From Actinomycetaceae bacterium (GTDB taxonomy: Bacteria; Actinomycetota; Actinomycetes; Actinomycetales; Actinomycetaceae): a DNA stretch of 64,000 bases. The notes below the pieces were generated by a model. That model saw only the letters and a program-made list of their open reading frames with translations. It did no database searches and was not told the DNA's origin. Below, piece after piece: positions 3,728 through 38,613 of the stretch (position 1 is its first letter; each line of letters starts with the position of its first letter). A program made the position numbers and the translations under genes. The stretch is from contig JAUNKY010000003.1 in NCBI GenBank assembly GCA_030532515.1, positions 28,147-92,146 on the forward strand, in the 5' to 3' direction.

Positions 3728-4846
3728 ATGAGTATCATCACCGAAGAAAATGTTTGGGCGGCTCTGGCAACTGTTGAAGACCCAGAAATCCACCGTCCGA
3801 TTACCGACCTGAATATGGTCGCGAAAGTAGAAATCCACGATTCCCTAGTTGAAGTTGAAATTCTGCTGACTACCGCCGGGTGTCCGCTGAAGAACCACAT
3901 CAAGTCTGCGGTTGAGGCTGCGTTGCGCCAGGTTGAGGGCGTGGAGCAAGTTTCGATCATTATGGGGGCGATGAATGATGAGCAGAAGAAGGCTCTACGG
4001 GAAAAGCTCAATGGCGGGATTGCAGAGAAAGAAATTCCGTTTGCTAAGCCTGGTTCGCTGACTCGGGTAATCGCAGTTACTTCCGGCAAGGGCGGGGTTG
4101 GTAAGTCTTCGATGACTGCTAACTTGGCTTGTGCTTTAGCTAAGCAGGGGTTGAAAGTTGGCGTAGTTGACGCGGACATTTACGGCTTCTCAATTCCGCG
4201 CATAATGGGTGTGGAACATGAGCCAACTGTTTTGGATGGGATGATTATTCCTCCGGTTGCTCATGGCGTGAAGGTTATGTCGATTGGCATGTTCGTTCCC
4301 GAAGGGCAGGCGGTAGTTTGGCGTGGCCCAATGCTACACCGGGCGATTCAGCAGTTCTTGGCTGACGTTTTCTGGGGCGATTTAGATGTTTTGTTGCTGG
4401 ACTTGCCACCTGGCACGGGCGATGTGGCAATTTCGATTCCGCAGTTGCTTCCGTCTGCAGAGATTTTGGTTATCACTACCCCGCAGTTGGCGGCTGCAGA
4501 GGTTGCGGAACGAGCTGGTTCCATTTCCGGGCAGACGCGCCAGCGGGTAATCGGCGTAGTGGAGAATATGTCTTACCTGCCACAGCCGGACGGGTCGCAG
4601 TTGCGTATCTTTGGCGAGGGTGGCGGCCAGTTGGTAGCTTCCCGACTTTCAGAGCAGCTTGGTTACCAGGTACCGCTTTTGGCGCAGGTTCCGTTGGATA
4701 TGCAATTGCGCGAGGGCGGCGATGCCGGCTTACCAGTGGCGTTGCAGGACTCTGCTGCTTCAGAGGTTATTAATGCTTTGGCAGCTGAGCTTTCTAAGCA
4801 CTCACGCGGTTTAGCCGGGCGCCAGCTGGGGGTAACTCCAAAGTAG
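3728..4846 (+). CDS. apbC: Mrp/ApbC family Fe-S cluster carrier ATPase with an N-terminal DUF59/MIP18 domain
   Basis: P-loop TSGKGGVGKSS and a deviant Walker A ATPase body; N-terminal DUF59 (EDPEIHRPITDLNMV). Conserved mrp-tatB neighbourhood of actinobacteria. Confidence 0.85.
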   Translation: MSIITEENVWAALATVEDPEIHRPITDLNMVAKVEIHDSLVEVEILLTTAGCPLKNHIKSAVEAALRQVEGVEQVSIIMGAMNDEQKKALREKLNGGIAEKEIPFAKPGSLTRVIAVTSGKGGVGKSSMTANLACALAKQGLKVGVVDADIYGFSIPRIMGVEHEPTVLDGMIIPPVAHGVKVMSIGMFVPEGQAVVWRGPMLHRAIQQFLADVFWGDLDVLLLDLPPGTGDVAISIPQLLPSAEILVITTPQLAAAEVAERAGSISGQTRQRVIGVVENMSYLPQPDGSQLRIFGEGGGQLVASRLSEQLGYQVPLLAQVPLDMQLREGGDAGLPVALQDSAASEVINALAAELSKHSRGLAGRQLGVTPK

Positions 4847-4868
4847 GGGCAGTTTAGAAACTGACGTA

Positions 4869-4915
4869 AACCTGGCTTTTCACTGCTTTTGCAGCGAAAA
4901 GCCAGGTTTTTGTCT
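4869..4915 (+). terminator. rho-independent terminator after the mrp gene
   Basis: 13-bp stem AACCTGGCTTTTC/GAAAAGCCAGGTT followed by TTTTGTC. Confidence 0.55.
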
Positions 4916-5003: not shown

Positions 5004-5160
5004 AACTCGTATCAAAATCTGATTTTGATACGACTTATCCTCATTTTCATCTTAAATACGACGATAACTCGTATCAGATTTTGATTTTGATACGAATTAT
5101 CCTCATTTTTGCCCTAAATACGACGATAACTCGTATCAGATTTTGATTTAGATACGAGTT
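5004..5160. repeat. Family A tandem palindromic repeat array, locus 1 (about 2.5 units, 62-bp period)
   Basis: Units of AACTCGTATCA-N11-TGATACGAGTT (33-bp near-perfect palindrome), each followed by a conserved 29-bp linker ATCCTCATTTT...ACGACGAT. Confidence 0.85.
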
Positions 5161-5248
5161 TAAAATTTCAGCTATCGTTTGCGCTCCGGCATCTTCATTC
5201 CGCACAGCTTCATCATTTGTTCTGCACTGGCACCATGGGCCACAAACA

Positions 5249-5288
5249 CTGCTGAGGGGGACCCACTTGGATCCCCCTCAGCAGTTTG
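5249..5288 (-). terminator. hairpin downstream of the YbjN gene pair (putative terminator)
   Basis: Perfect 13-bp stem CTGCTGAGGGGGA/TCCCCCTCAGCAG; flanking T-tract is weak. Confidence 0.4.
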
Positions 5289-5312: not shown

Positions 5313-5867
5313 TTATTCCTCTTCTTCTAAAGAAATACCCAGTTCGCCGTAGGCTCCCTTGATAGCTTCCAAAGAGGTAGCGATCGCGCAGTGAATTTGC
5401 AGTGCTAGCTGCTTGTCGGTGCAACCTGGTTCGAAGTCAACTGAGTGTTCGCAGCACACGCGCAAAGCGGTGTCAGCGTCTACGCGGCGCGTGTACACCT
5501 TTGGGAAGTAGTGTTCACGGTGCCAGTTCTCAACGAAAGCGTCCAGCTGGTCTTCAGCGTCAAGCGGAATATCGACGGGGCTTTGGGAGAATACAGTGAG
5601 GATTTCACCGTCCTCGCCATTGAAGTTGAACAGGAAAGGAATCCCATCCCACCCGGATTCAATCTTGGCGCGGTAGCCTTCTTCTGGATCAGCGTCGATA
5701 ACGCCGTACTTGAAGCCTTCACTGTCCATGTAGGCAGTGACGCGTTCCAACGTAAGTGGGGACAGTTGTCCGGCTACTGCTGGAGCTGGTTGGAAACGGT
5801 CGCCAGCGTTTGGCTGTGGTTCTTGTTCTTCGCCCTCAGAGCCGAATAGTTTTGAAAATACACCCAT
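5313..5867 (-). CDS. YbjN-domain protein (putative sensory-transduction regulator / T3SS-chaperone-like fold)
   Basis: 184-aa acidic cytoplasmic protein; paralog of the adjacent gene (shared EGFKY...D.DGD... core). Confidence 0.55.
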   Translation of the reverse strand: MGVFSKLFGSEGEEQEPQPNAGDRFQPAPAVAGQLSPLTLERVTAYMDSEGFKYGVIDADPEEGYRAKIESGWDGIPFLFNFNGEDGEILTVFSQSPVDIPLDAEDQLDAFVENWHREHYFPKVYTRRVDADTALRVCCEHSVDFEPGCTDKQLALQIHCAIATSLEAIKGAYGELGISLEEEE

Positions 5868-8571: not shown

Positions 8572-8633
8572 TTAGTAGTGAAGGACTTTCCTCTGCGGGG
8601 GTAAAGTCCTTTGCTTATTTGGAAGGAAATTCT

Positions 8634-10319
8634 ATGGTTGATTACCAATTGGTTGAAGAATGGATTAACGACGATCCAGATACCACCACTCAGGAAGAAT
8701 TGCGTTCTTTGGTTGCTGCGGCGAAGGCTGGAGATGCAGCTGCTGAAGCTGATTTAGCGGATCGTTTTAACGGCACGCTGACGTTTGGTACTGCAGGTTT
8801 GCGCGGTGAGCTGGGCGCGGGCCCTAACCGCATGAACCGTGCGGTAGTGATTCGCGCTGCCGCTGGCTTAGTTTCTTACCTGCGTAAGACTGTGGGTGAC
8901 GATTTCCACTTGGTAGTAGGTCACGATGCGCGCTACGGTTCTAAGCAGTTCGCTCAGGATACGGCTGCGATTGCTGTGGCTGCTGGTGGTCGAGCTTCTT
9001 TGTTTAACCGCGAACTGCCTACTCCAGTAACTGCTTTTGCCCTGCGTCACCTGAACGCCGATGCTGCGGTAGTGGTAACTGCTTCTCACAACCCGCCACG
9101 CGATAACGGTTACAAGGTTTACCTGGGTGGCCGCGCTGTTTCTGATTCCGGTCAGGGCGCTCAGATTGTTCCTCCAGCGGATAAAGAGATTTTCGCTGAG
9201 ATCAAGGCGGTACCTTCTGTTGCTTCAGTTGCTCGTGCTGAATCCGGTTGGGAGATTCTGGGCGACGAACTGGTTAATGCCTACTTAGAGCGGGTCACTT
9301 CCCTTGTTTCTCTGGAAGCTAAGGACCTGCGCATTGTGCTTACTTCCATGCATGGGGTGGGCGGTGAAACCTGTCTGCGCGCGTTGAACTTGGCTGGTTT
9401 CAACGATGTTCACGTTGTTGCTGAGCAGCATGATCCTGATCCTGATTTCCCTACGGTTACTTTCCCTAACCCGGAAGAACCCGGGGCGTTGGATCTTTCC
9501 TACAAGTTGGCTTCTGAAGTTGATGCTGACATTATTTTGGCAAATGACCCTGATGCTGACCGTTGTTCGGCGGCGATTCGCGATGCTTCTTCGGCAACTG
9601 GTTGGCGCCAGCTGACCGGTGACGAAGTGGGTTCGTTGCTGGGCGAGCAGACTGCGGCGATGCATACTGGCGATAAGTCTGCCGTTTTGGCTAACTCGAT
9701 TGTCTCTTCGCAACTTCTTGAGCAAATTGCTGCGCACCACGGTGTCTCTTACCGCGCGACTTTGACTGGTTTCAAGTGGATTTCCCGTGTGGAGGGTCTG
9801 GTTTTCGGTTACGAAGAGGCTTTGGGTTACTGCGTTGATCCACAGTTCGTGCGCGATAAGGATGGTATTTCTGCCTGTTTGCGTTTGGCTACGATGGCTG
9901 CGCAGCGTAAGGCTGCTGGTTCTTCCTTACAAGATGCGTTGGATGATTTGGCTCGCCGTCACGGACTGTACGCTACTGCGCCACTGTCGATTCGCGTTGC
10001 TGACCTTTCCTTGATTAAGCAGGGTATGGCAAATCTGCGTGCAGGTTCGGTTACTTCTTTGGCTGGTGAACCAGTTTCTTCCGTAGTGGACTTGGCAGAG
10101 GGTTCTGAGCAGTTGCCACCTACTGATGGTTTGGTTTTCCGCACGGCAGCTGGTGACCGAGTAATTGCTCGCCCATCGGGTACCGAACCGAAGTTGAAGT
10201 GCTACCTTGAGACCGTTATTCCAGTTCCCGAGGGCGCCGATATGCGTGAAATTCGCGCGGCTGCGGCAGCTCGTTTGGACTTGATTAAGGCTGATATGGC
10301 TGCGGCTTTGGGAATCTGA
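8634..10319 (+). CDS. alpha-D-phosphohexomutase family phospho-sugar mutase (PmmB-like; probable phosphopentomutase/phosphoglucomutase)
   Basis: Active-site Ser loop TASHNPPRDNGYKVY and a metal-binding DPDADR block. punA-adjacent like Mtb deoD-pmmB. Start chosen at the ATG preceded by GGAAGGA; the ORF track extends to a TTG at 8619. Confidence 0.8.
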   Translation: MVDYQLVEEWINDDPDTTTQEELRSLVAAAKAGDAAAEADLADRFNGTLTFGTAGLRGELGAGPNRMNRAVVIRAAAGLVSYLRKTVGDDFHLVVGHDARYGSKQFAQDTAAIAVAAGGRASLFNRELPTPVTAFALRHLNADAAVVVTASHNPPRDNGYKVYLGGRAVSDSGQGAQIVPPADKEIFAEIKAVPSVASVARAESGWEILGDELVNAYLERVTSLVSLEAKDLRIVLTSMHGVGGETCLRALNLAGFNDVHVVAEQHDPDPDFPTVTFPNPEEPGALDLSYKLASEVDADIILANDPDADRCSAAIRDASSATGWRQLTGDEVGSLLGEQTAAMHTGDKSAVLANSIVSSQLLEQIAAHHGVSYRATLTGFKWISRVEGLVFGYEEALGYCVDPQFVRDKDGISACLRLATMAAQRKAAGSSLQDALDDLARRHGLYATAPLSIRVADLSLIKQGMANLRAGSVTSLAGEPVSSVVDLAEGSEQLPPTDGLVFRTAAGDRVIARPSGTEPKLKCYLETVIPVPEGADMREIRAAAAARLDLIKADMAAALGI

Positions 10320-10352: not shown

Positions 10353-10414
10353 AAATAACTGCTCCTGGAAATATCCGGCGTTTGCTGGTATTTTCCAGGA
10401 GCAGTTATTTTATT
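10353..10414 (+). terminator. long-stem terminator after the phospho-sugar mutase gene
   Basis: 19-bp perfect inverted repeat AAATAACTGCTCCTGGAAA/TTTCCAGGAGCAGTTATTT, then TATT. Confidence 0.55.
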
Positions 10415-10643: not shown

Positions 10644-10800
10644 AACTCGTATCAGAATCGATTTTTGATACGAGTTATCCTCATTTTTCACCGGTTTCAG
10701 GTGCTAACTCGTATCAGTTTTGGATTTTGATACGAGTTATCCTTATTTCGCACCGGATTTAGGTGATAACTCGTATCAGAATCGGTTTTTGATACGAGTT
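10644..10800. repeat. Family A tandem palindromic repeat array, locus 2 (3 units, 62-bp period)
   Basis: AACTCGTATCAGAATCGATTTTTGATACGAGTT + ATCCTCATTTTTCACCGGTTTCAGGTGCT, repeated with variable palindrome centres. Confidence 0.85.
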
Positions 10801-10930
10801 TAAGATTTTACGTAAAGAAGCTGCGCGGCAGCGAACCGGTGTAACCAAAAATCTACAAGACCAGTAAGCCCGTAGGAGAAAAGAAATCGCGCGGGAAAGT
10901 GCTTTCCCGCGCGATTTCAGCTATTTACCT

Positions 10931-13900
10931 TTACTGTAACTTACTACGTTTGCGACGCACTAAGACTACCCCCAGGGCGAAGAAACCAGCTGCAAAACCA
11001 CCTAAAAGCCCGGCAGATACACCGGTCTTAGGAAGTTTCGGAGTCTTCGGAATCTGGTGGTTAACCACCTTGCCAAGGTCTACAACCTGAGCTTCTTCAC
11101 TAATCTGCGCAGACAGAACCTGATTAGACATGGTAAATCCAGCCGGAGAAGCTACTTCCTTCACCTGATAGCTGCCAAAAGCAACTTCCTTGAACCAAAC
11201 TTCACCCTTAGCATCAGAAGTTGCTTCACGAAGCACTTCCCCAGCTTCATTAAGCAGCGCGAACTTAGCACCTGCCAATGGTTTTCCAGAGTCAGTCAGC
11301 TTCAGCAGTTTGATGTCTCCGTGGATCAATCGATTCTGGAATGGTTTTGCCACCTTAATGACTTCCCCATCCTTTTCTACAGACACCAGGCGACCAAAGG
11401 TTTCCGTGCTGGGGTTGTAGCCGGTGATTGGCTTCAACTCGACTACAATCCACTTACCGTATTCAATGCCAGTGAACTGGGCAACCCCGTTTTCATCAGT
11501 TTCTACCTGGAAAGCAGGGACATCAGGTAAATCAAATCCCGCTGGGTAACTGGTCAGTTCAACTGCCTCACCTGGTACCGCTTGGGTGAAGGAATCTGTT
11601 GCTGGGAAGAGCCCGAAGACAACTCCCGCCAGTGGCTGCTGCGTCTGCGCATCCACCTTCGTTACCTGAATGTCACTGGTAATCTTCCGGTTTTCGATCT
11701 TCCCCAAAGCCACCGTTTGCTTATCAGCTTGCACACTTACCGGGTAGGTCTTTCCATGAGCGACATATCCAGTAAGCGGGGTCTTTTCACGTACCGTGTA
11801 GTCTCCGTAACGTACATTGCGGAAAGTAAGATTACCCGCGTCATCAGTTGCCTGCGTTGCAACCACCTTGTCAGCGTCATCAACTAGCTCAAACTCGACT
11901 CCGGCTAAAGGCTTTTGCGTCTTGTCTTCTACCTTCGTCAAAGTTACTGAGCCGCGGATCGCCCGGTTGTTCACAGTCCCTGCGTTAACCTCCACACCGT
12001 CCTCGTGAATTGAAACGGGAATCGGGGTAGCTTCCAGGACAAACCCAGTCGGAGCTTGCGTTTCTACCAACTGGTATTCCCCGTAAACTACCTTGTCGAA
12101 GACCAACTCGCCGGCTGCGTTAGTTACGCCCGTGCGCACCGTCTGGTCGCCTTGCAGCAAAGCGAAATGTGCTCCGGCCAAGCCCTGGCGGTCATCCAAC
12201 GAGAACTTAGTGACCTTCACACTGCCCTTCTTCAGCAAGTTAGTAACTGCTCCCAGATCTACAGTTTGCTTGTCAGCGCTAATATTAACCGCGCCCTTCC
12301 AAGTAGTGTTCAAAGTGTAGTTCTCAGGAGCCCCCACTTCTTCGGCTACGTACTGTCCGTAGACCACATTCGTGAAGGTTACATTCCCAGCCGCATCCGA
12401 AGTTGCCCGGTACTTAACTTCCGTCCCCTGCTTGAGGACGAACTGCGCGCCGGCTACTGGCTTCGTAGGATCGTCAGCATCCACCTTGCGCAGAGTCACC
12501 GTCCCCTTCTTCAAGGTGTTTTGTACGGTTCCAAGGTTAACTTCCTGGCCTTCAGTGCGGATAGTTACCTGCTGGGTTAGCGTTGTCGGAACGTAGTTGA
12601 TCAGCGGCGTGATTTCGCGTAGCTGGTACTGGCCGTACTCTACGTCAGTAAACGTTGCTACGCCGTCAACACCGGTGGTAGCGGTATAGGTTGCTGCTGG
12701 CAAGTAGGTGCCATCAGCGTCCTGTTTGAAGAGGCCAAACTCTACTCCTGCCAAAAGCATTAGTGGAGTATCAGCATCTACCTTAGTGACCTTTACGGTG
12801 CCGGTAATTACCTTGTTGACGAATGGTTCGCCGGCAGTAACTACCTGCTTGTCGATGGCTACCGTAACTTCACGACCAGCTGTTTCTGCAGACGGGTTAA
12901 AGCCTTCCTTCGGAGTAGTTTCCTTCAGGACATAAGTGCCATAAAGGACGTTAGTAAAGGTTGCTTTCCCGTCAGTTCCCGTTGTGGCAGTGTAGGCCGC
13001 TTGGTTAGCTACCGTGCCGTCGGCTGCCTTTGCAAAGAGGCTAAAGGTTACTCCTGCCAATGCAGTTCCCTTAGTATCTTGCTTTTCAACTTCCACGTTG
13101 CCACGAATCCGGGTATTCACAAAAGCGTTGCCAGTTAGGTCATTGGCTTCACCGGCTTGATCAATCACGATCTCGCGCTTATCTGCCGTATTCAGGTTAT
13201 GACCCGCAACGGTAGCTTTTTCGCGTAACTCATAGGTGCCAAACGGTACCTTCACAAACGAGGCAATGCCGTTTTCATTAGTAGTCGCTTCAAAAGCTGG
13301 GTCGGCTGCTACCGTGCCATTGACCTTGGCGTACAGTCCGAAGACTACGCCTTCCAATGGCTTCGCAGGCGTGCTGTCATCCACCTTCTTTACGGTGATA
13401 GAGCCGTTAATGAACTGGTTTTGTACTTCGCCCAGTTCAATCGTGGCGCCATTTTCCGTAACGTTTACTTCCCGGTCGGTGGTATCAAGCACGTATCCAG
13501 GAAGCGTAGCAGTTTCCCGCACCACGTAGGTTCCGAAGCGAACATTGTTGAAAGTAGCAACGCCGTTGGCGTCGGTTTGCGTAGTGGCAGTTGGCGCGCT
13601 GGCTACCGAGTCTTGGCTCTTCGCAAATAGTGCAAAAGTAACGCCACGCAGTTTCTTAGTGGGCTGATCCTTATCGACTTTCACCAAAGTCACCGTGGAC
13701 TTCTTAATAGTGTTCGTCAACGGCTCAGTCACAAAATCAACTACCTGACCATCCGTATCAATATTCACATCCAGTTCCCTACCCAACGGCAAGTAACCGG
13801 TAGCCGGAGCCTTCTCAACCAACTTATAAGCCCCAAAAGGCACCCCTGAGAAAGTAGCCAGACCCGCCGGATCAGTAGTCTGCGTAGCAAAAACAGCATC

Positions 13901-16900
13901 CTGCTTTACTCCGCCCACCACTCGGTGCAGCTCAAAAACCACTCCACCTACCGGAGCCTGCGTATCCGCATCCACCTTCTTCAACTGCACACTACCCTTT
14001 TTGAGAGTGTTGGTGACGGTGGTGAGGACAACTTCTTGGTCTTGCTCAGAGATTACCGCCTGCTGCGTTTGGGCAGTTGGCAGGTAGTTAAGTAGCGGCG
14101 TGATTTCACGCAGTTGGTATTCGCCGTAGGCTACGCCGGTGAAAGTTGCGACACCGTCTACCTGGGTGAGGGCGGTGTAGTTAGGCGTGGTCGGATAAGA
14201 ACCGTCTGCGCCCTTTTTGTAAAGGCCAAATTCTACGCCCGCCAAAAGGACGGTAGGTGTATCCGCGTCTACCTTAGTGACCTTCACCGTGCCAGTGATA
14301 ACGCTGTTTACGAATGGAGCACCCGCAGATACTACTTCTCCTTCATTTAACACTGCGATTTCTCGTCCGCCTACTTCAGCCGAGGGGTTGTACCCTTCCT
14401 TTGGAGTGGTTTCCATCAAGAAGTAGGAGCCGTACAGTACCCGCTTGAAAGTTGCCCTACCATCTGGTCCGGTTACGGCAGTGTAGGCAGCTGGTTCTAC
14501 GGCGAAGCCATCCATATTGCTAAAGAGGCTGAAGGTTACGCCCGGAAGTGGGTTTCCGCTCTCGTCCTGCTTCATAACAACTACGTCACCGCGAATCCGC
14601 TGATTTACAAACGGAGTATCAGTTAGGTCGTTAACCTCGCCGGCTTGATCAATCACGATCTCGCGCTTATCTGCCGTATTTAGGATATGACCTGCGATAG
14701 TTTCTTTTTCGCGTAATTCGTAGGTGCCAAACGGTACCTTCTCGAAAGTGGCAATGCCATCTGGTTCCGTGGTGGCTACCAAAGTTGGGTTAGGAGCCAC
14801 TCCGGCAGCAGTCTTTTCGTAAAGTGCAAATACTACCCCATCCAGCGGTGTGCCAGGATTGTCATCGTCTGTCTTCTTAACGATTACAGAACCGTTAATG
14901 AACTGGTTGGGAATGTTCCCGACGGTAACAGTCTGCTTATCTTCAGTTACCTGTACCTCCCGGTCGGTGGTATCAAGCACGTATCCGGGAAGCGTGGCAG
15001 TTTCCCGCACCACGTAGGTTCCGAAGCGAACATTGTTAAAAGTAGCAACGCCGTCACCGTTAGTTACGGCTGTATCTACTGGGTCGGCAGCTACACCCTG
15101 TGCTGTCTTTGAGTAGAGCTTGAAGGTTACGCCAGTTAGTTTCTTAGTGGGCTGCTCCTTATCGACCTTCACCAAAGTCACCGTGGACTTCTTAATAGTG
15201 TTCGTCAACGGCTCAGTCACAAAATCAACTACCTGACCATCCGTATCAATATTCACATCCAGTTCCCTACCCAACGGCAAGTAACCGGTAGCCGGAGCCT
15301 TCTCAACCAACTTATAAGCCCCAAAAGGCACCCCTGAGAAAGTAGCCAGACCCGCCGGATCAGTAGTCTGCGTAGCAAAAACAGCATCCTGCTTTACTCC
15401 GCCCACCACTCGGTGCAGCTCAAAAACCACTCCACCTACCGGAGCCTGCGTATCCGCATCCACCTTCTTCAACTGCACACTACCTTTGAAGATAGTGTTT
15501 TCATAATCTTCCAGGACGTATTCGTGTCCGTGGTCGCGAACTTCCACGTCTACCGTCTGAGTTGATTTTTGGTAGTGTGCCGGAGCGGTCTTTTCACTGA
15601 GGGTGTAGTCGCCGTAAATAACGTTGTTAAAGGTGGCGATTCCATCAGGTCCAGTGGGGTTGGATTCGTATTTGATAGTTGGATTAGTTTTACTTACCAG
15701 AGCAAATACTGCTCCGGAAAGGGTCGTATTAGGGTTGTCTGCATCGACCTTCTTTACCTTTACGGTTGCTTTCACAACCGTATTTTGGATTTCGATGGCT
15801 GGCTGCGCCTGCCCAGCAGTATCAACTGCTAGGGGCGCGCTGCTGACAATGATTTCTTTCGGAGCTGTTAGACCTTGGACGCCAGCGGGAACGTTTGTTT
15901 CGGTTAGCGTGTACTTACCAAACGGCACGTCCCTAAAAGTTGCATAGCCGGTTGCCGTGGCGTCCGTAGTTTTATCCGTATCTGCTTTTTCTCCGGTAAC
16001 TGCGGTGCGTGGTGCTGGCAGTGGGTCCGGAGCATCGATTCCTGGCAGAGGTTCCACCCAGGTAAGGGTGAAGTTAATGCCATTGAGCAAGTTTCCGTCT
16101 TGGTCAACCTTCTTGATGATTACATCGCGTTTGGTTGCTTTAACACCTGCGTTAATGGTGGCTTCTGGCGTAGCTGGGGTTAGTGCGAATGCTTTCGAGT
16201 AACCGATTTGGTTAGTCTTCGCCCCTGCTTCGGCGCAGTTCGTGGCTTCAGCTGTTGCAAGTGGTGTAGCCTCACCTTGAATGTCACCGCGACACTTTTC
16301 AACGTGGTTAGCCAAAGCCACGTCCTGTGACGGCACTACCGTGTAGGTTTCCGAGGCTTCCTTAACGAACTGGATGCGGTAGTTTCCGCGAGTGTAAACC
16401 GGAAGCTCGTAGTTACCGAAATTGTCAGTTACTGTGCTTACTTCAGTGCCATCTGGGTGGGTAGCAACTTTCCCGGTAGTGGCATCTACCAGAATAACTT
16501 TGCGTCCTGCTACGCCTCCTTCAGAAGTACTCCCAGATCCGTTATGATCCAGGTCGCGGAAGTAATTTCCTTTGACACGGTAGTTGATGATTTCCGAAAT
16601 TACTTCATTTGCTTCCAGGTAGGTAAGGGCATCTATAGAGCTGGCAGCAGAATGTACCGCCTTGTATGCAGCCGGTAGTTCCTTAGTTTTTTCGTTGAAA
16701 GGAATCTGATGCTTGGTGACAATCTGAATTGCTTCGCCGGCTGCTAGTGCTGAGTTGTCTTTGAAAACCAGCTTGAAGTTCCGGATTTCATTCCAGTTGG
16801 TGACTTCATCTGCACGTAGCCAGACGCCGTCGCGGACATCCTGCAGGCGATCTCCTTGCGGGACCTTGGAATAGAAGATATCCACGCGATTGGTCGCGTC

Positions 16901-19660
16901 GCTCTCTACCCTATTCTTGATAGCGGTTACCGATACTACTGGGCCGCTGAGCAAAGTCTCATAGCTAGAGTGGAAGCGGTTCTCGGTCTCTCCGGCTGGA
17001 TTTAGGTAAGTCCAGGGGCGAGGCAAGTATTGTCCATCTTTATTTGCCACAATGCGGTGGTCATTTGCCTGAGGGAAGGTGCCCAGCAAAGTAATCCCCT
17101 GCAAATCCGTATAACTAGCGTTACGTGCTTCAGTTCGGTAGTAAAGCGTACTTCCCAAGTCTTGGGCTGGAGCAGTAATGAACCAGTTATTTGCATCCAA
17201 AGAGATATTGTTCCTTACCACCAGTTCTTGGGGAGGAATGATCTCTGTGACAACTCTGCGATGGGGAATTTTCTCAGTGGTATCACCATTGCGGTTGATA
17301 TCGAAAGTATCTGCTTCAACCGTATACTGGTATGGTTTTACCTTATCCATGTTGTCCCACACAGCATAGAAGGAAATCGGGTTTTGCCCGGGGTCTACGC
17401 TAAGGGTGGTGTCTAAGTTAATCCCGGTAGTAATTCGCAGGTTGCCGTTTTGGTCCCTGCTTACGTCGCCGTATTCATAAATCACCGCAGTTTTACCTGA
17501 GTTGTTGAAGTTCGGCACTACCTTTGGAGCAAAGTCCGGATTTAACCCTTGGCTGTATTTTGTAGTTACTCTGTTGGTGCTTACGTAGTTCACACCAGGG
17601 GGCAGAATGAAGACGTGCTTAAAGTTCTGCAATGGTCCGCGATAAGGTCCCCAAACTGAGTATGGGACGGTTTCAGCGGTGTAAGTCTTGACTCGTCTAC
17701 AGTTATTTGGTGTCAGTGCAGTTGGATCAAGCTTTTGGTCAATAAGTTCCTGTTCACAGTTTTGGTACAACATGCGAGTATTCTGTTCCAAGGTAGCCCC
17801 GATGACTGGGGTGATCCCTTGAATTACCACGCTGTTATTGCGCTTATTCTGCTCTTCTAAAGTCAGCGGTTTAGAGACATCTGCATCTGGACCAAGGTAC
17901 TTCAGCTCAGTTTGGTTGTCGTATGTTTGGCGGTTTACAGCTGAGTACTCTCCGTTTGCCCACTTCTCAATTTCTGCTGGCAAAGGAGCCACATCGACGT
18001 GCAGACGGAACCACATATTGTCCATCAATAATGGGTTATCAAACCGGAAAATCAGTTTTTCATATTTACGAGTCTTATCGTTAATGAAGACCCCGTGGGA
18101 ATTTTCCGAGCCTTCTTGCATTGGAGCATTTGTAAGCTTCACTTCAGAGCCGTTGGCAGTAACGCCGTAGACGTGCAGTTTCGCTTCTGCAAAGCGTTTC
18201 GAAACGTCTGCTGGAGTTAAAGCAGTGCTGTTAGAAGGTCTGATATCAGTGATAAATACGCGCCGGAAGTAGAGGCGCGGATCAAGATCTTTATCAACTA
18301 CTTCGGTAATCGTATTTGTAATCCCGCCGCTCTTAGGACCGGTTGCTTGGGAACCATTGTTCTGTTGGGAAACTTCAATTCGGTACCCAAATACGAATCC
18401 TTGGCGGGAATCATCGCTTAAATCATTTTCATAGTGATCACGGTAGATTTTGCCATCTTCTAAGACATAACCGCGATCGGTAGCGGGTACTTTGCTGATG
18501 GTCAGCTGCGACGTTTTCTTAAAGACAATCGTTCCGAACGAAGACTTAGAGAAGTCAGTTCCCGCATTGTAGTTCAAAGTATCGGGGTCGATTGTTGCGA
18601 CCCCGGTTGCGGTGTAAACCTTTGGTTTTCCGCCCTCGTTAAGTGGTAATCCCACGAAATCAACCGAAAGGTTAACGGTACGGCTATCTGATCCACAGGG
18701 CCATACTCCCGCTCCTAGTTGAGAGGTTTTGCGAGTGATCTCAACCTGGGTGTCATTCGTATTTGGAACGTACTTCCAACCAAGGCGCGTCGCTTTTTCA
18801 CCTAGGCGTGCCCCTTCAGGAAGGGTAACTACCAGGCGAACGGTATCACCGAAGTATTCACCTCTTTGTGACGGTACCCCATTAGGACGTCGGTAGTTGA
18901 TACCCACGCAATAGTCTTGCGTGACGTAGCCTGGGTCAGGCAGAAGGTCAGTAGTCGTATTGGCGTTCGCAGCATCTAAAACTGTGTAGTCACAGTGGCG
19001 GGTATAGGTTCCGTTACTTTCCTTTGCGCCAATGATTTTACACAGAGTATTGCCTGCGGGATTGTGTCCGGCACGCAAGATGGTGTCATATTCCATCTGG
19101 GCTTTGGCAACTAAAGTGCGGGCCTCTGAGGCGCGCGGTTGTTTCGCCGCGTCGTAGAGTGTCCATTCGATAGGGATTTGTGTATTTGGTGGGGTAATCC
19201 CGTTAATGAAGGAAAGAATCGTGGTCACCTGTGAGAACACGCCACCACGCAGGGGGTCAAAATGGTAATCCATGTACCAGAAGTTGCTGTCTTCGCGCAT
19301 GACCGAGGCTTGGGCAGCTTTTGAACTGGTGAACTCTGGGCGCTTTAGGTAAGGTGACTTAGCGATTTTAATCGTAAAGGTCGCTCCGGGAATGTTCAGG
19401 TTTGCGCCCGAGGATTGAAACCCTGAGATGAAGGCAAATTCGTCTCCAGTGACGACGCTCCAGTCTGGTGTCTTGCCGTTCTTAAGGGCATCTACAGTAG
19501 TGAGTAAGAGGTCGATGCGCTCTGTTGCACCATCTTGGGTATTTGTTGCGTGGGCTGAACTTCCGCTGTCTGTAAGCGATGGGAATGTAACCAGCCCCAA
19601 AATAAGTGCGAGTACAAAGAACAGTACTCGCATTTGCTTTTTGAAACTAAATGTATACAT
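10931..19660 (-). CDS. Giant LPXTG-anchored surface adhesin (2909 aa): signal peptide, ~1000-aa non-repetitive N-terminal region, then ~17 tandem Cna-B/SpaA-type (isopeptide, prealbumin-like) domains
   Basis: N-terminal signal peptide MRVLFFVLALILGLVTFPSL. Repeating ~95-aa modules (G[ST]V.V.KVD.....PLAGV.F.L......ATTD..G.A.F..V.YG.Y.L.E..AP.GY). C-terminal LPKTG + hydrophobic stretch + RRKRSK sorting signal. Confidence 0.9.
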   Translation of the reverse strand: MYTFSFKKQMRVLFFVLALILGLVTFPSLTDSGSSAHATNTQDGATERIDLLLTTVDALKNGKTPDWSVVTGDEFAFISGFQSSGANLNIPGATFTIKIAKSPYLKRPEFTSSKAAQASVMREDSNFWYMDYHFDPLRGGVFSQVTTILSFINGITPPNTQIPIEWTLYDAAKQPRASEARTLVAKAQMEYDTILRAGHNPAGNTLCKIIGAKESNGTYTRHCDYTVLDAANANTTTDLLPDPGYVTQDYCVGINYRRPNGVPSQRGEYFGDTVRLVVTLPEGARLGEKATRLGWKYVPNTNDTQVEITRKTSQLGAGVWPCGSDSRTVNLSVDFVGLPLNEGGKPKVYTATGVATIDPDTLNYNAGTDFSKSSFGTIVFKKTSQLTISKVPATDRGYVLEDGKIYRDHYENDLSDDSRQGFVFGYRIEVSQQNNGSQATGPKSGGITNTITEVVDKDLDPRLYFRRVFITDIRPSNSTALTPADVSKRFAEAKLHVYGVTANGSEVKLTNAPMQEGSENSHGVFINDKTRKYEKLIFRFDNPLLMDNMWFRLHVDVAPLPAEIEKWANGEYSAVNRQTYDNQTELKYLGPDADVSKPLTLEEQNKRNNSVVIQGITPVIGATLEQNTRMLYQNCEQELIDQKLDPTALTPNNCRRVKTYTAETVPYSVWGPYRGPLQNFKHVFILPPGVNYVSTNRVTTKYSQGLNPDFAPKVVPNFNNSGKTAVIYEYGDVSRDQNGNLRITTGINLDTTLSVDPGQNPISFYAVWDNMDKVKPYQYTVEADTFDINRNGDTTEKIPHRRVVTEIIPPQELVVRNNISLDANNWFITAPAQDLGSTLYYRTEARNASYTDLQGITLLGTFPQANDHRIVANKDGQYLPRPWTYLNPAGETENRFHSSYETLLSGPVVSVTAIKNRVESDATNRVDIFYSKVPQGDRLQDVRDGVWLRADEVTNWNEIRNFKLVFKDNSALAAGEAIQIVTKHQIPFNEKTKELPAAYKAVHSAASSIDALTYLEANEVISEIINYRVKGNYFRDLDHNGSGSTSEGGVAGRKVILVDATTGKVATHPDGTEVSTVTDNFGNYELPVYTRGNYRIQFVKEASETYTVVPSQDVALANHVEKCRGDIQGEATPLATAEATNCAEAGAKTNQIGYSKAFALTPATPEATINAGVKATKRDVIIKKVDQDGNLLNGINFTLTWVEPLPGIDAPDPLPAPRTAVTGEKADTDKTTDATATGYATFRDVPFGKYTLTETNVPAGVQGLTAPKEIIVSSAPLAVDTAGQAQPAIEIQNTVVKATVKVKKVDADNPNTTLSGAVFALVSKTNPTIKYESNPTGPDGIATFNNVIYGDYTLSEKTAPAHYQKSTQTVDVEVRDHGHEYVLEDYENTIFKGSVQLKKVDADTQAPVGGVVFELHRVVGGVKQDAVFATQTTDPAGLATFSGVPFGAYKLVEKAPATGYLPLGRELDVNIDTDGQVVDFVTEPLTNTIKKSTVTLVKVDKEQPTKKLTGVTFKLYSKTAQGVAADPVDTAVTNGDGVATFNNVRFGTYVVRETATLPGYVLDTTDREVQVTEDKQTVTVGNIPNQFINGSVIVKKTDDDNPGTPLDGVVFALYEKTAAGVAPNPTLVATTEPDGIATFEKVPFGTYELREKETIAGHILNTADKREIVIDQAGEVNDLTDTPFVNQRIRGDVVVMKQDESGNPLPGVTFSLFSNMDGFAVEPAAYTAVTGPDGRATFKRVLYGSYFLMETTPKEGYNPSAEVGGREIAVLNEGEVVSAGAPFVNSVITGTVKVTKVDADTPTVLLAGVEFGLYKKGADGSYPTTPNYTALTQVDGVATFTGVAYGEYQLREITPLLNYLPTAQTQQAVISEQDQEVVLTTVTNTLKKGSVQLKKVDADTQAPVGGVVFELHRVVGGVKQDAVFATQTTDPAGLATFSGVPFGAYKLVEKAPATGYLPLGRELDVNIDTDGQVVDFVTEPLTNTIKKSTVTLVKVDKDQPTKKLRGVTFALFAKSQDSVASAPTATTQTDANGVATFNNVRFGTYVVRETATLPGYVLDTTDREVNVTENGATIELGEVQNQFINGSITVKKVDDSTPAKPLEGVVFGLYAKVNGTVAADPAFEATTNENGIASFVKVPFGTYELREKATVAGHNLNTADKREIVIDQAGEANDLTGNAFVNTRIRGNVEVEKQDTKGTALAGVTFSLFAKAADGTVANQAAYTATTGTDGKATFTNVLYGTYVLKETTPKEGFNPSAETAGREVTVAIDKQVVTAGEPFVNKVITGTVKVTKVDADTPLMLLAGVEFGLFKQDADGTYLPAATYTATTGVDGVATFTDVEYGQYQLREITPLINYVPTTLTQQVTIRTEGQEVNLGTVQNTLKKGTVTLRKVDADDPTKPVAGAQFVLKQGTEVKYRATSDAAGNVTFTNVVYGQYVAEEVGAPENYTLNTTWKGAVNISADKQTVDLGAVTNLLKKGSVKVTKFSLDDRQGLAGAHFALLQGDQTVRTGVTNAAGELVFDKVVYGEYQLVETQAPTGFVLEATPIPVSIHEDGVEVNAGTVNNRAIRGSVTLTKVEDKTQKPLAGVEFELVDDADKVVATQATDDAGNLTFRNVRYGDYTVREKTPLTGYVAHGKTYPVSVQADKQTVALGKIENRKITSDIQVTKVDAQTQQPLAGVVFGLFPATDSFTQAVPGEAVELTSYPAGFDLPDVPAFQVETDENGVAQFTGIEYGKWIVVELKPITGYNPSTETFGRLVSVEKDGEVIKVAKPFQNRLIHGDIKLLKLTDSGKPLAGAKFALLNEAGEVLREATSDAKGEVWFKEVAFGSYQVKEVASPAGFTMSNQVLSAQISEEAQVVDLGKVVNHQIPKTPKLPKTGVSAGLLGGFAAGFFALGVVLVRRKRSKLQ
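12500..15480. repeat. Intragenic ~1.49-kb tandem duplication (5 Cna-B modules x2) inside the adhesin gene, including two 100% identical ~340-bp segments
   Basis: 13640-13990 and 15130-15480 are identical at nucleotide level (both encode KGSVQLKKVDADTQAPVGG...KKSTVTLVKVDK). Flanking modules are diverged copies in the same order. Confidence 0.85.
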
Positions 19661-28260: not shown

Positions 28261-28578
28261 AATTTCCTCCTATGGAGTTGTAAGGATACTCTGAGTTACC
28301 GTTTTCTATGGAACATTTTTCCTTTGAATGGTCTCTCATTTGCCGTTCCAGTTTACCTGATTATTGTTAGCAATATCGCGGTCGATATGGAATCGTTACC
28401 CAGCAATGCCCGAGTTTCCCGCAAAATTGCCCACATTTAGCGACGTAGCTCACACTCTTTCGTGACTATAGTAGAGGGACTTTACAAACCCTTAACTAAA
28501 GCAAATTACGGACTATCAATTACCTACGCTCGATTGAGTTTGCCTATAGCAACGTTAGTCGCACGTTATACCGTTCAT

Positions 28579-28712
28579 TTCGCACGGGAAACCGCTTTCG
28601 TATGCGAATTCAGCCCACCAACCCCCTAAATTCACACGGGAAACGGCTTTCGTATGCGAATCCAGCCCACCAACCCCCTAAATTCGCACGGGAAACGCGT
28701 TTCCCGTGCGAA
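28579..28712. repeat. Family B tandem palindromic repeat array, locus 1 (3 units, 52-bp period)
   Basis: 30-bp palindromes TTCGCACGGGAAAC(C/G)GCTTTCGTATGCGAA separated by 22-bp linker TTCAGCCCACCAACCCCCTAAA. Third unit is a perfect palindrome TTCGCACGGGAAACGCGTTTCCCGTGCGAA. Confidence 0.85.
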
Positions 28713-28855
28713 TTGAGAGTAGACTGGGCGCCCTCGGGACAATATCGGGTGAACGGCGCTCCCAACCTGCCCTCTGAAATTAAACTAATCCCGCTCCCCT
28801 GCTGCGAACTTTTAGCTCGCCGGGAAGCGGGATCAGTAAAGCACTATTAAATGAA

Positions 28856-31661: not shown

Positions 31662-34600
31662 ATGGAACTCAACGTAGAGACCCGCCGACGGCGATTAGTC
31701 GGCGCATTAACAACCATTACGTTAATCGCAACTCCACTCACCGCACTGCCTTCCGCCTTTGGTGCAGAAGATCAAAATTCGGTGCCAGTCGCAGTCTCTA
31801 GCACTGCACAGGAAGCTTCCGCGCTTCCAAATGTGTCCGTACAAATCACTCCAGCCGAAGATCGCACCTACAATGTGGGCGAAACCATTCGGTTCAATGT
31901 CACGATTACCAACCATACTCCAAATTCCTACGGCATTCAGTTAGAAGCTTCGGAAACAAACCTGGGCAATACCCTTAAATGTCGTTGGTCCCAATTCAGA
32001 GGGAATGGACATTCCGGGAACTGCAATCGCGCTGACTTGCAGCTAACTCACGAAGTCACTGAAGAAGATGCCCGTGCCGGACAGTTCGTACCGTACTACG
32101 TTGTTACGCTCTATGAACCAAAGCCTACTTCAGCTACAGGCTATAAGAAGGTACTCCATAAGCTTCCGCGGGTCGAGCTTAAACCAATTAAAGTTGCAGC
32201 CCCGGGAACCACTAACCCAGCGCCTGCACCACGCGTCGCAGAGATCTCCTTCCAGCTCCGCAGCACCAAACAGGGGCCATGGACTTTGGGTGACTTGCTG
32301 GAATACACGATTCACGTTAAGAACGTCTCGGGCGCAGCCCGCGGTTTCACCCCTATTGATGGCAACTTAGACAAATGGGAAAAGTGCAAGTGGAGCAATC
32401 CCTTCCCAGACCAAACCACTAAGTCAGACTGTAGCTTCGTCACGCACCGCATCACCGCAGAAGACGTCACCCGCGGCTACTTTGAACCCTTCATCACCTA
32501 TCAAGGCGTTCCAAAAGCCGTAGGCGACAAAGTAATCATTCGCCCTGAAGCAATCGCCCTCGAACTAGGAGACGTTACCGGAGTAAAACCGCACTATACT
32601 GCCGGTGACGTACTCAGCTTCCCCGTGAAAGTTATCTCCCGCGGGCAGGAAACCTACACTCTGCGTACCGACGCCAGCAACCTAACTTTCACCGGCGCCA
32701 AATGTGATGGCACGCTGAATACCGGCGCCACCCACAGCTGCGAAGTAGGCACCTACACCATCACCGAAAATGACTTAGAAGCCGGCTACTTCACCCCTAC
32801 CCTCACGGTTACTGCCCTGGGCGCTAATCAAGAAGTTGCAGGCGTAGTGTCCCTAAAAGCCGCTGAAGTTAAACTCCCCCACCAGCACGTGTGGCCAAAA
32901 GCCGGCGCGTTTAAACCTGCTGACTATAATCCCGCAGGTAACGCAGCAGGCGGTCTAACCAAAGAACTGATTATCGCTCAGCAAAACGGCAATAACTTCT
33001 ACCGCATTCCGGCACTCACCGTGGCTCCAAACGGGGACCTGCTGGCGTCCTACGACCACCGGCCAAACCACGCCGGAGACACCCCTAACGCAAACTCCAT
33101 CGTGCAACGTCGTTCCTCTGACAACGGCAAAACCTGGGGTCCAGAAACCTTCGTTGCCAAAGCCCACGGAGTTCCAAACCAGACGCTGGAATCCTTCTCT
33201 GACCCCTCTTACGTAGTGGATTACAAGACCGGTAAGATCTTCAACTTCCACGTGAAGGGCTACAACCGCGGTTGGGGCAACGCTGAATACAGTTTCAATG
33301 GAGATAAAGTGCGCGTTGGGAACCGCAACTCCATGGACCTGCACGTTTCCGTTTCCGACGACAACGGCCGCACTTGGAAACACCAGGTGATCACCGACCA
33401 GTTGCTCAACGGACGTACTGAAACTGTCAAAGCCTTTGCCACCTCTGGCGACGGCATCCAAATCCAGCACGGTACCTACCAAGGACGCCTGGTACAGCCA
33501 GCTGCCTGGGGGCTACGCGATGGCCGCGTCGTAGCTGCAGTTATCTATTCTGACAACGGCGGCGAATCTTGGAAGCTGGGTCAGTGGACCCCTACCCAGG
33601 GTACTGACGGTGTACACCGCTGGGACGAAAATAAGGTCGTTGAACTTTCCGACGGACGTTTGATGATCAACTCCCGCGTTTCTGACGGCCCCGCCACCCG
33701 AGCCCGCGTGCGCGCGATTGCCTACTCTTCTGACGGTGGCGTCACTTGGACTGCTCCACAGACCGAATCGCAACTAACCGACCCGGTTAATAACGCGCAC
33801 ATCATCCGTGCTTTCCCGAACGCCCCACAGGGCTCGGCCAAGGCAAAGATGCTGCTGTTCTCTAACTCTAAGAACGCCTACGCCCGCACCAACGGCACCA
33901 TCACTGTTTCATGTGACGATGGTAAGACTTGGAAGAATGGAAGCGCTAAGGAATACTTCGCCGGACACATGGGTTACTCTTCCATCGCCGTTTTAAATGA
34001 CGGTTCCGTAGGTATCCTCTCTGAAGTTGCCGGTCACTCAATCCGCTTCCAGCGTTTTGACTCCACCTGGCTTGGACAGCAGTGTGACTTGACGGAAACT
34101 AACGTGCAGCCACCTGCTACCCCAGATTTCACCGTAGAAGTTGCGCCCACTCAAAAGCGCGTCTACACCGAAGGGGAAAAGATCTGGTTCCAGATTTCCG
34201 TTCGCAACAATTCCAGCCAGGCATACGGCCTGCAGATTGCCGCAGAAGACACCAACTTGTCGCGTACCGAACGTTGCCGTTGGTCTACTTTTGCCCCGCA
34301 GCAGTCCGGCACCTGCAACAACGACCGGTTGATGGCTTGGCATATTGTTACTTCCGAGGACGTAGCAGCCGGCTCTTTCACCCCGCACTACGCGCTGAGC
34401 CTGTACGAAGCTCAGCCAAGTACCAGCGACCAAATTTACAAGAAACGCCTCTTCACTTTGCCAAAGGTAACTTTGGAACCAGTCCAAGTAGCTCCAGCTC
34501 CACCACAGGCAGAGGTAACGATTCAATTAAATAACCCTAAGACCACTCCGTGGACTAAGGGTGATATTTTGAACTACAGCGTTTTAGTGAAGAACACTTC

Positions 34601-36854: not shown

Positions 36855-36937
36855 TCTACTGTCTGAGTAAATAGTCTGGGTGGCTGGTAGTTTTCTACCG
36901 GCCACCCAGTTTTTGCGCGTGGCCTTTTGGAGCTCAT

Positions 36938-37071
36938 TTCGCACGGGAAACGGCTTTCGTATGCGAATTGAGAGGGTTTGGGGGCTGAATTCGCACGGGA
37001 AACGGCTTTCGTATGCGAATTGAGAGAGTTTGGGTGCTCATTTCGCACGGGAAACCGCTTTCGTATGCGAA
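36938..37071. repeat. Family B tandem palindromic repeat array, locus 2 (3 units, inverted relative to locus 1)
   Basis: TTCGCACGGGAAACGGCTTTCGTATGCGAA x3 with 22-bp linkers TTGAGAGGGTTTGGGGGCTGAA, which resemble the reverse complement of the locus-1 linker. Confidence 0.85.
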
Positions 37072-37184
37072 ATGAAGGTTGGCGGGCGCCCTCGGGAAAA
37101 TTTTTACGAGGGCGGACCACCCGGGTCTTGCGAAACACTGCCAAGTCTCCGCCCTAAACCGTGCTCCCTCCAAAGAAAAATCCA

Positions 37185-37341
37185 AACTCGTATCAAAATC
37201 GCAAACTGATACGAGTTATCGCCCAAAACCAACGCAAAATGAGGATAACTCGTATCAAAAACTGATTTTGATACGAGTTATGGGTAAAACGGGGGCTAAA
37301 CCAGGGATAACTCGTATCAAAACGCGAATTTGATACGAGTT
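37185..37341. repeat. Family A tandem palindromic repeat array, locus 3 (3 units, inverted orientation)
   Basis: AACTCGTATCAAAATCGCAAACTGATACGAGTT etc. with a 62-bp period; linker contains AAAATGAGGAT, the reverse complement of ATCCTCATTTT in loci 1 and 2. Confidence 0.85.
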
Positions 37342-37517
37342 TCAAAAAAGGGAGCAAAACCGGCGGACATGACGCCCCACCCAGCCCCCCCGAACCGGGC
37401 GCCAAAGCATCCACGCCTGCTGAGCATTGGATCCTGCTGAGCATCGGCGCTTAAAACCTACCGTACCAATCCCAAAAACCGAAAACAAAAAGGGAACTCG
37501 CAAAAGCGAGTTCCCAG

Positions 37518-37592
37518 TGGTTCCGCCCCCAGGATTCGAACCCAGATCTCAAGGCACCAAAGGCCCGCGTCATGCCGTTAGACCAGGGCGGA
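37518..37592 (-). tRNA. tRNA-Gln (anticodon UUG), CCA encoded
   Basis: Reverse complement folds as a cloverleaf: acceptor stem TCCGCCC/GGGCGGA (U1-A72, typical of bacterial tRNA-Gln), T-loop GGTTCGAAT, anticodon loop CUUUGGU, 3' ACCA. Confidence 0.6.
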
Positions 37593-37857: not shown

Positions 37858-38613
37858 ATGAATGTACCCGCAATTGAATTGCGAAATCTAACCAAAGTAT
37901 TCGGAAATACGGTGGCCGTTGGCAACATCAGCCTCAGCATTCCAAAAGGCTCTTTCTTCGGTGTGGTGGGTCCCAACGGCGCTGGTAAAACCACATCTTT
38001 AAATATGGCTACCGGCTTGCTGATCCCCGACCAAGGTACAGCTTTCATCAATGGCATTGATATGTGGCAAAACCCCGGCGAAGCCAAGGCACTGCTGGGG
38101 GTTATGCCTGACGGTATGCGACTATTCGACCGCCTTTCCGGCCCGGCCCTTGTCACCTATTTCGGTATGCTGCGCGGCCTTTCCAAGGCTGAAGCAGAAG
38201 CCCGCGCTACCTCTTTGATCGAGGTTCTGGGTCTGGCTGAAGCTGGCGACAAACTGGTGGTTGACTACTCGGCTGGTATGACTAAGAAAATTACTTTGGC
38301 GTGCGCCCTCGTACATAATCCGCAGGTGCTGGTACTGGACGAACCATTCGAAGCTGTCGATCCAATTTCTGCGGCTACCATCCGCGAAATTCTCAATAAT
38401 TTCGTTGCCAACGGTGGCACTGTGGTCCTTTCCAGCCACGTGATGGAAACCGTCCAAAAGCTATGCACCCACGTAGCTATCTTCAACCAAGGGCGAATTC
38501 TGGCTGCCGGCACCACTGCCGACGTAGCAGCTGGCATGGATCTGGGCGAACGTTTCGCTCAGCTGATTGGTGGCGTAAAGTCCACGGAAGGTTTGGAATG
38601 GCTGCGTCACTGA
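37858..38613 (+). CDS. ABC transporter ATP-binding protein (ABC-2 / DrrA-like exporter type)
   Basis: Walker A GPNGAGKTT, signature YSAGMTKK, Walker B VLVLDEP. Confidence 0.85.
   Translation: MNVPAIELRNLTKVFGNTVAVGNISLSIPKGSFFGVVGPNGAGKTTSLNMATGLLIPDQGTAFINGIDMWQNPGEAKALLGVMPDGMRLFDRLSGPALVTYFGMLRGLSKAEAEARATSLIEVLGLAEAGDKLVVDYSAGMTKKITLACALVHNPQVLVLDEPFEAVDPISAATIREILNNFVANGGTVVLSSHVMETVQKLCTHVAIFNQGRILAAGTTADVAAGMDLGERFAQLIGGVKSTEGLEWLRH

Follow-up and report, generated by a model that had tools for sequence, protein, structure and literature searches.

Three intergenic arrays of palindromes that were found in the window (the whole stretch of DNA that was analysed, 64 kb in length) probably, though far from certainly, represent a previously undescribed dispersed non-coding stem-loop repeat of the REP/BIME or MITE-like kind from a Gleimia-related lineage, here termed family A. 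The original prediction put forward an array of operators for a dimeric DNA-binding protein and named a REP/MITE-like element as an alternative; it is this alternative that is now favoured, in view of the modular copies, the location in convergent gaps, the restriction to one lineage and the turnover in unit number.

The arrays come from the MAG of an uncultured member of the Actinomycetaceae near Gleimia: protein MDO5060234.1 of this MAG, which is labelled Actinomycetaceae bacterium, is identical to the phosphoglucomutase encoded in the window, the latter sharing 89% identity with the enzyme of Gleimia sp. 6138-11-ORH1 (hereafter ORH1) and 82% with that of G. coleocanis, and the proteins encoded beside the arrays are actinomycete housekeeping or surface proteins. 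A sister species, found via the members of protein clusters and represented by Logan assemblies only, is approximately 97.5% identical to the window in phosphoglucomutase, 88% in genes (at the DNA level) and 68–72% in intergenic DNA. Copies of family A were counted in approximately 72 kb of the window genome and approximately 60 kb of the sister species, giving three arrays and one extra site, so that a high copy number, read from these lengths, is an extrapolation. The genome and metagenome collections scanned do not contain the species of the window, and in the collection of species-representative genomes the pattern occurs in no Gleimia.

The arrays at the three proposed loci (A1, A2 and A3; Table 1) were confirmed. 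Each of them consists of exactly three 33-bp palindromes of the form AACTCGTATCA-N11-TGATACGAGTT, where 2.5–3 units had been proposed, and the proposed phase of 62 bp turned out to be exact; the length of an array, 157 bp, is the sum of three 33-bp palindromes and two 29-bp linkers. The exact pattern AACTCGTATCA-N(9–13)-TGATACGAGTT was matched six times in the window and not once in any of 100 dinucleotide shuffles. Together with the three units of A1, each of which carries a single mismatch in the right arm, this gives nine units in the window. A covariance model of the unit, which was built on all known units and run with filters off, likewise found exactly nine units in 64 kb and otherwise noise. 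The model scored best on the plus strand at A1 and A2 and on the minus strand at A3; the architecture had been described as the same at all three loci with no mention of orientation, and A3 is in fact inverted, so that the three arrays align unit for unit and end to end only once A3 is reverse-complemented. TRF did not call A3 a tandem repeat. Logan assemblies that were made independently, from the same sample as well as from the sister species (L028, L030, L031, L040), contain these arrays too, hence the arrays are not an assembly artefact; one Logan contig of the window strain breaks off inside A1.

Table 1. Family-A arrays in the window, their neighbouring genes with terminators, and the types of loops and linkers (positions are those of the window).
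Feature	Position	Strand	Length	Description
A1	5004–5160	plus	157 bp	palindromes 5004–5036, 5066–5098, 5128–5160; beta-Lb-gamma-Lb-gamma
A1, left neighbour	3728–4846	plus		Mrp/ApbC-like gene; terminator hairpin 4863–4914
A1, right neighbour	5313–5867	minus		YbjN-domain gene; terminator hairpin 5248–5285
A2	10644–10800	plus	157 bp	perfect-armed palindromes 10644–10676, 10706–10738, 10768–10800; beta-Lb-gamma-Lb-beta
A2, left neighbour	8619–10319	plus		phosphoglucomutase gene; hairpin 10353–10410
A2, right neighbour	10931–19660	minus	2909 aa	LPXTG pilin-like gene; terminator 10883–10918
A3	37185–37341	minus (inverted)	157 bp	perfect-armed palindromes 37185–37217, 37247–37279, 37309–37341; alpha-La-beta-Lb-gamma on the minus strand
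A3, left neighbour	31662–36854	plus	1730 aa	sialidase-like gene; terminator 36876–36909
A3, right neighbour	37518–37592	minus		tRNA-Gln; terminator 37515–37492
Loop alpha			11 nt	AATTCGCRTTT
Loop beta			11 nt	RAATCRGTTTT
Loop gamma			11 nt	GTTTKSGATTT
Linker La			29 nt	ends GTTTTACCCAT
Linker Lb			29 nt	ATCCTCATTTTGC...GGNGAT

The anatomy of the repeat was described on 14 distinct units and eight linkers from the window and the sister species. The arms of internal units reach 13 bp (ATAACTCGTATCA), and the palindrome written with 13-bp arms reads ATAACTCGTATCA-N11-TGATACGAGTTAT. All 14 loops are 11 nt long and all eight linkers 29 nt long, with mean pairwise identities of 64% and 59%, respectively. 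The linker had been claimed to be conserved, which is not borne out, since whole linkers reach the above 59% versus 97% for the arms, and an initial ATCC, a T-run and a terminal (G/C)AT are all that the linkers have in common; among the 308 arm positions there are five mismatches. The 11-bp centre does vary, as was proposed, but it is rich in A towards the left and in T towards the right and falls into three loop types (alpha, beta and gamma); due to this composition the stem often gains 2–4 extra pairs, so that palindromes of 33–37 bp with stems of 11–15 pairs are formed (91% of cells paired). Judging by the asymmetry of the loops and by the linkers, the units of each array are all arranged head to tail.

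The order alpha-La-beta-Lb-gamma was found both in A3 of the window, on the minus strand, and in A2 of the sister species, i.e., at different loci, with 139 of 157 positions identical, and is the apparent master form of the module. Since the types of loops and linkers are discrete and stand in the same order at different loci, it is the three-hairpin module that seems to be dispersed. The spreading unit would then be a composite 157-bp module, built of common 11–13-bp arms, three 11-nt loops and two 29-nt linkers (La and Lb), rather than a single palindrome that was tandemised later. (G)AAACTCGTATCA opens the module and TGATACGAGTTT closes it, and the same inverted repeats recur inside; as all arms are alike, the whole module can also be folded as one nested quasi-palindrome.

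All copies are intergenic, as had been stated, and each lies between two convergent genes. Both flanking genes have canonical hairpin terminators of their own, so that each array occupies the non-essential gap between two terminators. No regulator, recombinase or transposase gene was found among the flanking genes scanned near the three arrays, and a Pfam search of the unannotated ORFs near A3 and of the ORFs overlapping arrays, which are spurious, yielded no DNA-binding or recombinase domain. The search for promoter-like sites in the three array regions gave one match (10435–10407, minus strand), situated approximately 200 bp outside A2, and the count did not exceed that in shuffles. The idea that a dimeric regulator uses the arrays as operators is hard to reconcile with this location beyond the terminators, with no promoter-like site or regulator nearby, with a unit number of three versus one at one site in two species and with the absence of the element from the corresponding sites of the closest named relatives. 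What remains of the operator idea is its structural part and not the context of gene regulation: the arms are conserved as sequence and the 11-nt and 29-nt spacings are fixed, and family A shares with transcription-factor operators the dyad half-sites, the fixed spacing and the sequence conservation.

Some features of the neighbouring genes may be recorded here. The terminator hairpin of tRNA-Gln, GGGAACTCGCAAAAGCGAGTTCCC (37492–37515), has the same outer six bases as the family-A arms (AACTCG/CGAGTT) and is the top non-family match of the unit model, with 14.6 bits. The genes between tRNA-Gln and ABC-F (37858–42360), which encode an ABC ATPase, a protein of 615 aa with no Pfam match and two hypothetical proteins, have no sister-species member in their 90% clusters, and a sister-species contig stops at the boundary of this segment, which may be a small species-specific island beside a tRNA gene. 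The LPXTG pilin-like gene contains internal repeats with a period of 1488–1491 bp that are up to 98% identical; it is missing at this position in ORH1, and the version of G. coleocanis has 2397 aa. The sialidase-like gene carries an internal duplication of 2262–2268 bp.

Comparative genomics, to which the original prediction had pointed as a check, revealed family A in the sister species and not at the same sites of ORH1 and G. coleocanis, where the unit model detected no unit in 21.7 kb of syntenic DNA. The same gaps of these two relatives measure 113 and 206 bp versus 466 bp and contain ordinary unique terminators only; the intergenic gaps of the array-free relatives are too diverged to align, and provide no clean empty site. 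The gene order from A2 to A3 is unchanged in the relatives without the element. Between the window and the sister species the A1 site differs by exactly 124 bp (2 × 62), i.e., three units versus one, and the A2 site has three units in both species with the register shifted by one unit. Two strains of the sister species agree on the family-A sites, and this species has in addition a solo unit (L038 4458–4490) in the convergent gap between the DEAD helicase and MarC genes, adjoining an array of family B, the second hairpin family described below. Exactly three units are present at four of the five complete sites. In both species A1 is in decay; in the window copy the uncompensated mismatch in every right arm points to it. 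In the Mrp/YbjN gap of G. coleocanis (L024 6585–6643), which corresponds to the site of A1, there is another long palindrome, TTGCGCGCGAACTTCAGTTCCCCCG...CGCGGGAACTGAAGTTCGCGCGTAA, and each of the related species may possess hairpin repeats of its own in such gaps.

Such changes of unit number and order in whole 62-bp steps are what recombination between identical arms would produce, and the arrays may have been reshuffled locally in this way. The arms themselves behave differently from the rest of the module. In the orthologous A2 arrays 65 of 66 arm positions are identical between the two species, while the surrounding intergenic DNA is approximately 30% diverged (binomial P ~7e-9); with the A1 site added, 85 of 88 positions are identical (P ~2e-10). 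Among the 14 units no compensatory change of the stem was found, all departures either breaking a pair or giving G:U, and 7 of the 11 arm pairs never vary. The flanking alignments between the window and the sister species need 94 and 132 gap columns, whereas the loops and linkers are without indels. The near-frozen sequence of the arms and the fixed spacings amid drifting loops and linkers argue for sequence-specific recognition and not for selection on a hairpin as such, so that the family-A arms are likely read by a sequence-specific protein.

Within the reading as a dispersed repeat, the arms would serve as recognition sites for a protein acting in trans, and by analogy with REPs, the stems of which are kept because the RAYT protein recognises them, this protein is most likely an enzyme that copies or maintains the element, like the RAYT-type transposases. 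No transposase or other partner gene was found in the window or in the loci of the relatives that were examined. Effects on the host would be secondary, and two candidates can be named: an extra hairpin barrier to read-through transcripts, and a cruciform or topoisomerase target at places where convergent transcription piles up supercoils.

The arms of A2 have been kept at one locus from a time before the two species separated, which could also point to a host function at the individual loci; such survival is not predicted for an element that is purely selfish and decaying. Hence the arrays may be regarded as phased sites for a host dimeric protein that acts at the level of the chromosome and not in gene regulation, e.g., a nucleoid-structuring, partition-type, SMC-related, fork-barrier or gyrase-recruiting protein, three dimers of which would occupy one helix face every 62 bp. 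We consider this main rival unlikely; several observations speak for it: the arms are near-invariant as sequence and show no covariation, the arms of the orthologous A2 arrays are conserved far above neutral expectation, the half-sites lie 22 bp apart from centre to centre and the period of 62 bp (approximately 5.9 helical turns) is fixed despite the divergence of loops and linkers. The prevalence of three units among the complete sites, the polarity of the arrays (plus and plus in the left part of the window, minus at 37 kb) and the 52-bp period (approximately 5 turns) of the co-resident family B point in the same direction. However, no gene for a candidate protein lies nearby, the absence from the closest named Gleimia at the same sites would make a core chromosome function a very recent one, A1 decays in either species and is down to one unit in one of them, and the module looks copied between loci.

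A related reading comes from outside the family. A termite-gut Coriobacteriia MAG (WQXH01, Ga0123356) contains at least 10 intergenic copies of a longer nested palindrome (loci L002–L004, L007, L008, L011, L013–L019, L021 and L022), GGGGGATACAGGGGGACGTATAACTCGTATCA-TTTCGTAGAAA-TGATACGAGTTATACGTCCCCCTGTATCCCCC, with the loop TTTCGTAGAAA in either orientation. Its 13-bp core arms (ATAACTCGTATCA) and the length of its loop, 11 nt, are identical to those of family A. It differs in being a single hairpin within G-rich inverted repeats (GGGGGATACAGGGGGACGTAT...), in the lack of 62-bp arrays and in belonging to another class; the number of outer G-rich modules is variable. That 26 bases and the spacing should agree by chance seems unlikely from comparison of the two repeats, and a common, perhaps horizontally moved, recognition protein would explain the link. 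The ATAACTCGTATCA arm with its 11-bp centre would in that case be the putative site of an unrecognised DNA-binding or processing protein common to distant Actinomycetota, and the three-site, 62-bp-phased module would be no passive junk but a functional nucleoprotein site, either a new kind of mobile-element end or recombination site or a chromosome-structuring site in zones of convergent transcription; as a whole, we find this account rather doubtful.

It may also be asked whether the arrays act as RNA. Read-through transcripts would then fold into three hairpins that serve as back-up terminators or as barriers to 3′–5′ exonucleases, as E. coli REPs do, and the identity of the arms would reflect recent copying. 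The predicted folds are indeed very stable (folding z-scores of −10.5 for RNA and −10.9 for DNA), the arrays are downstream of genes and a T-run begins 5–7 nt past each stem. G:T occupies the first loop-proximal position in 8 of 14 units, which permits G:U pairing on the element's own strand only and agrees with the polarity of the element. In the terminator scan one of the nine window units looked terminator-like. The claim that the arrays are not plain terminators nevertheless stands, given this single passing unit, the T-run that is not adjacent to the stem and the separate terminators of the genes. The arrays lie beyond the canonical GC-rich terminators of both flanking genes, whereas the window units have 27–36% GC and the stems approximately 36%. 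Moreover, selection on structure only would allow compensatory substitutions, none of which was seen in family A, and recent copying fails to explain identical arms beside loops and linkers that are approximately 40% diverged. An RNA role as the primary explanation is therefore improbable.

Still less probable, indeed to a high degree, is that the units are sites of site-specific recombination, with 13-bp arms and asymmetric cores alpha, beta and gamma, either res-like with three subsites or heterospecific and lox-like. Near-invariant 13-bp arms around an asymmetric centre of conserved types would suit such sites, and the res sites of the Tn3 family are composed of three dimer-sized subsites, as family A has three in approximately 157 bp; the arm ATAACTCGTATCA presumably also resembles the loxP arm ATAACTTCGTATA, which is a lead only. 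On the other hand, the window contains no recombinase gene, the 11-bp centre exceeds the 6–8-bp cores of tyrosine recombinase sites, and dispersed sites able to recombine with one another in either orientation should lead to inversions and deletions, while the A2–A3 gene order is unchanged. As for a degenerate or orphan CRISPR-like array, the regular alternation of a 33–37-bp palindromic repeat and a 25–29-bp spacer is its sole resemblance, and the idea can practically be discarded in accordance with the original prediction, as the centres of the repeats are variable, the would-be 'spacers' show homology from locus to locus and from species to species, the arrays do not exceed three units and no cas-like gene is present among the flanking genes scanned.

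The dispersed-repeat reading, to which we return, finds its nearest counterparts in the REP/BIME elements of E. coli and other Proteobacteria, BIME-2 in particular. Family A is like them in its short extragenic palindromic stem-loops, in its occurrence as singletons and as regular clusters with fixed linkers (62-bp period, 29-bp linkers), in its lineage restriction and in a unit number that varies between relatives. REPs typically are units of approximately 20–40 bp with tens to thousands of dispersed copies per genome, and the repeats flank the gene of their RAYT. REP units have stems of 5–13 bp and loops of 2–20 nt, and REP families prefer convergent gaps or the 3′ sides of genes (PMC3733652). 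Several differences have to be noted: the units of E. coli BIMEs alternate in orientation, while those of family A run head to tail; the palindromes of family A are perfect and those of REPs imperfect; and the host is an actinomycete, with no RAYT gene known from it and no REP family found described for Actinomycetaceae. Classified REP super-families carry a GTAG or CGTC tag at one end, and 'untagged' stem-loop families are known from M. tuberculosis, D. radiodurans, Bordetella, Brucella and cyanobacteria (PMC3733652). No such tag flanks the units of family A, which is therefore grouped with the untagged families; these are, like family A, palindromic intergenic repeats with no terminal tag or known mobilising enzyme, but they have other sequences, and family A is distinguished by three hairpins, the 157-bp module and the exact 62-bp period. 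MITEs share with family A the terminal inverted repeats; however, there is no target-site duplication at the ends of the family-A arrays, the flanks being GA...TA, GA...TA and GA...TG in the orientation of the element.

The BOX elements of Streptococcus pneumoniae are composite dispersed intergenic modules as well, structured, with one sub-unit variable in number and without a transposase of their own. Their modules boxA, boxB and boxC share no arms, while the sub-units of family A all have the same inverted arms. Dyad sites at fixed spacing, often three of them, are also known from sopC of plasmid F (43-bp inverted-repeat units), from the res sites of the Tn3 family and from OR/OL of lambda. 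These arrays adjoin the gene of their binder and occur once or twice per replicon, whereas family A is dispersed among unrelated genes.

The searches for a described relative, Rfam and BLAST among them as had been proposed, matched no known family. At the gathering thresholds of Rfam only tRNA-Gln passed in the window, and at E-value thresholds the arrays matched only generic long-hairpin (plant miRNA) models, far below threshold. BLAST of a 186-bp array against plasmids and phages gave only chance matches of 24–25 nt, and a pattern scan of a viral collection with loops of 0–30 nt gave nothing. Two Y1-transposase probes had no match in the DNA searched, which amounts to less than 5% of the genome; this is a weak negative. 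The literature search for REP, RAYT or MITE in Actinomycetaceae or Gleimia returned nothing relevant, and the search by arm sequence returned primers and a single Listeria 'CRISPR' repeat only. With no match found in Rfam, plasmids, phages or literature, family A counts as a new family within a kind of element that is already known.

The Listeria repeat, GAACTCGTATCAAAACTGCTTAA, is reported in three copies (PMC12041059). Its likeness to family A is presumably a coincidence; Listeria is absent from the matches of the palindrome scan. The companion 'array' of GAACTCGTATCAAAACTGCTTAA reads like what we take to be the coding repeat of actA. The single hairpins of Cellulosilyticum, Roseburia, Saprospiraceae, Syntrophobacteraceae and a few metagenome contigs were treated as chance; several of them are flanked by A-runs and T-runs and are thus terminator-like.

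A second hairpin array, family B, occurs in the same DNA. It consists of three imperfect palindromes TTCGCACGGGAAAC..CTTTCGTATGCGAA with a 52-bp period, at 28574–28719 and 36933–37078 of the window, and one perfect variant reads ...GTTTCCCGTGCGAA. Family B was also found at the ends of L027, approximately 4.4 kb to the left of the window, and of L029, approximately 3.4 kb to its right, and to the left as well as to the right of the window, Logan contigs of the same strain have their first bases within B hairpins. Between the two arrays in the window the 22-bp linkers are mutual reverse complements (18 of 22 positions), and the imperfect hairpins have the same orientation. In the sister species the arrays of family B (L032 60–150 and 8400–8500; L038 4541–4622) include orthologous arrays with two units versus three. 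The stems of the window and the sister species differ by apparent paired changes (TTCGCAC...GTGCGAA versus TTCGCAT...ATGCGAA), and from these stems family B appears to evolve by compensation, whereas family A does not. A3 is 106 bp from the nearest array of family B, and at two independent loci (window 36933–37341; L038 4458–4622) the two families stand approximately 50–110 bp apart, which suggests that they are directed to one type of gap or that one family targets the other.

REP-like repeats have been well studied in Proteobacteria, and none was found described for Actinomycetaceae. Family A provides a clean natural experiment, in which the arms and spacings are near-frozen and the rest drifts, and the two sister species let orthologous and paralogous copies be separated. 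In practice, the arrays break short-read assemblies in this lineage and could be mistaken for CRISPR arrays, and they are usable as strain-typing markers. Since the pattern of conservation points to a protein that reads the arms, this partner should be findable by phylogenetic profiling: it is expected in both sister species, perhaps in the Coriobacteriia MAG, and not in ORH1 or G. coleocanis. One may ask what kind of protein this would be; if the partner is a host factor and not a transposase, the arrays would mark a novel mode of arranging the ends of convergent genes.
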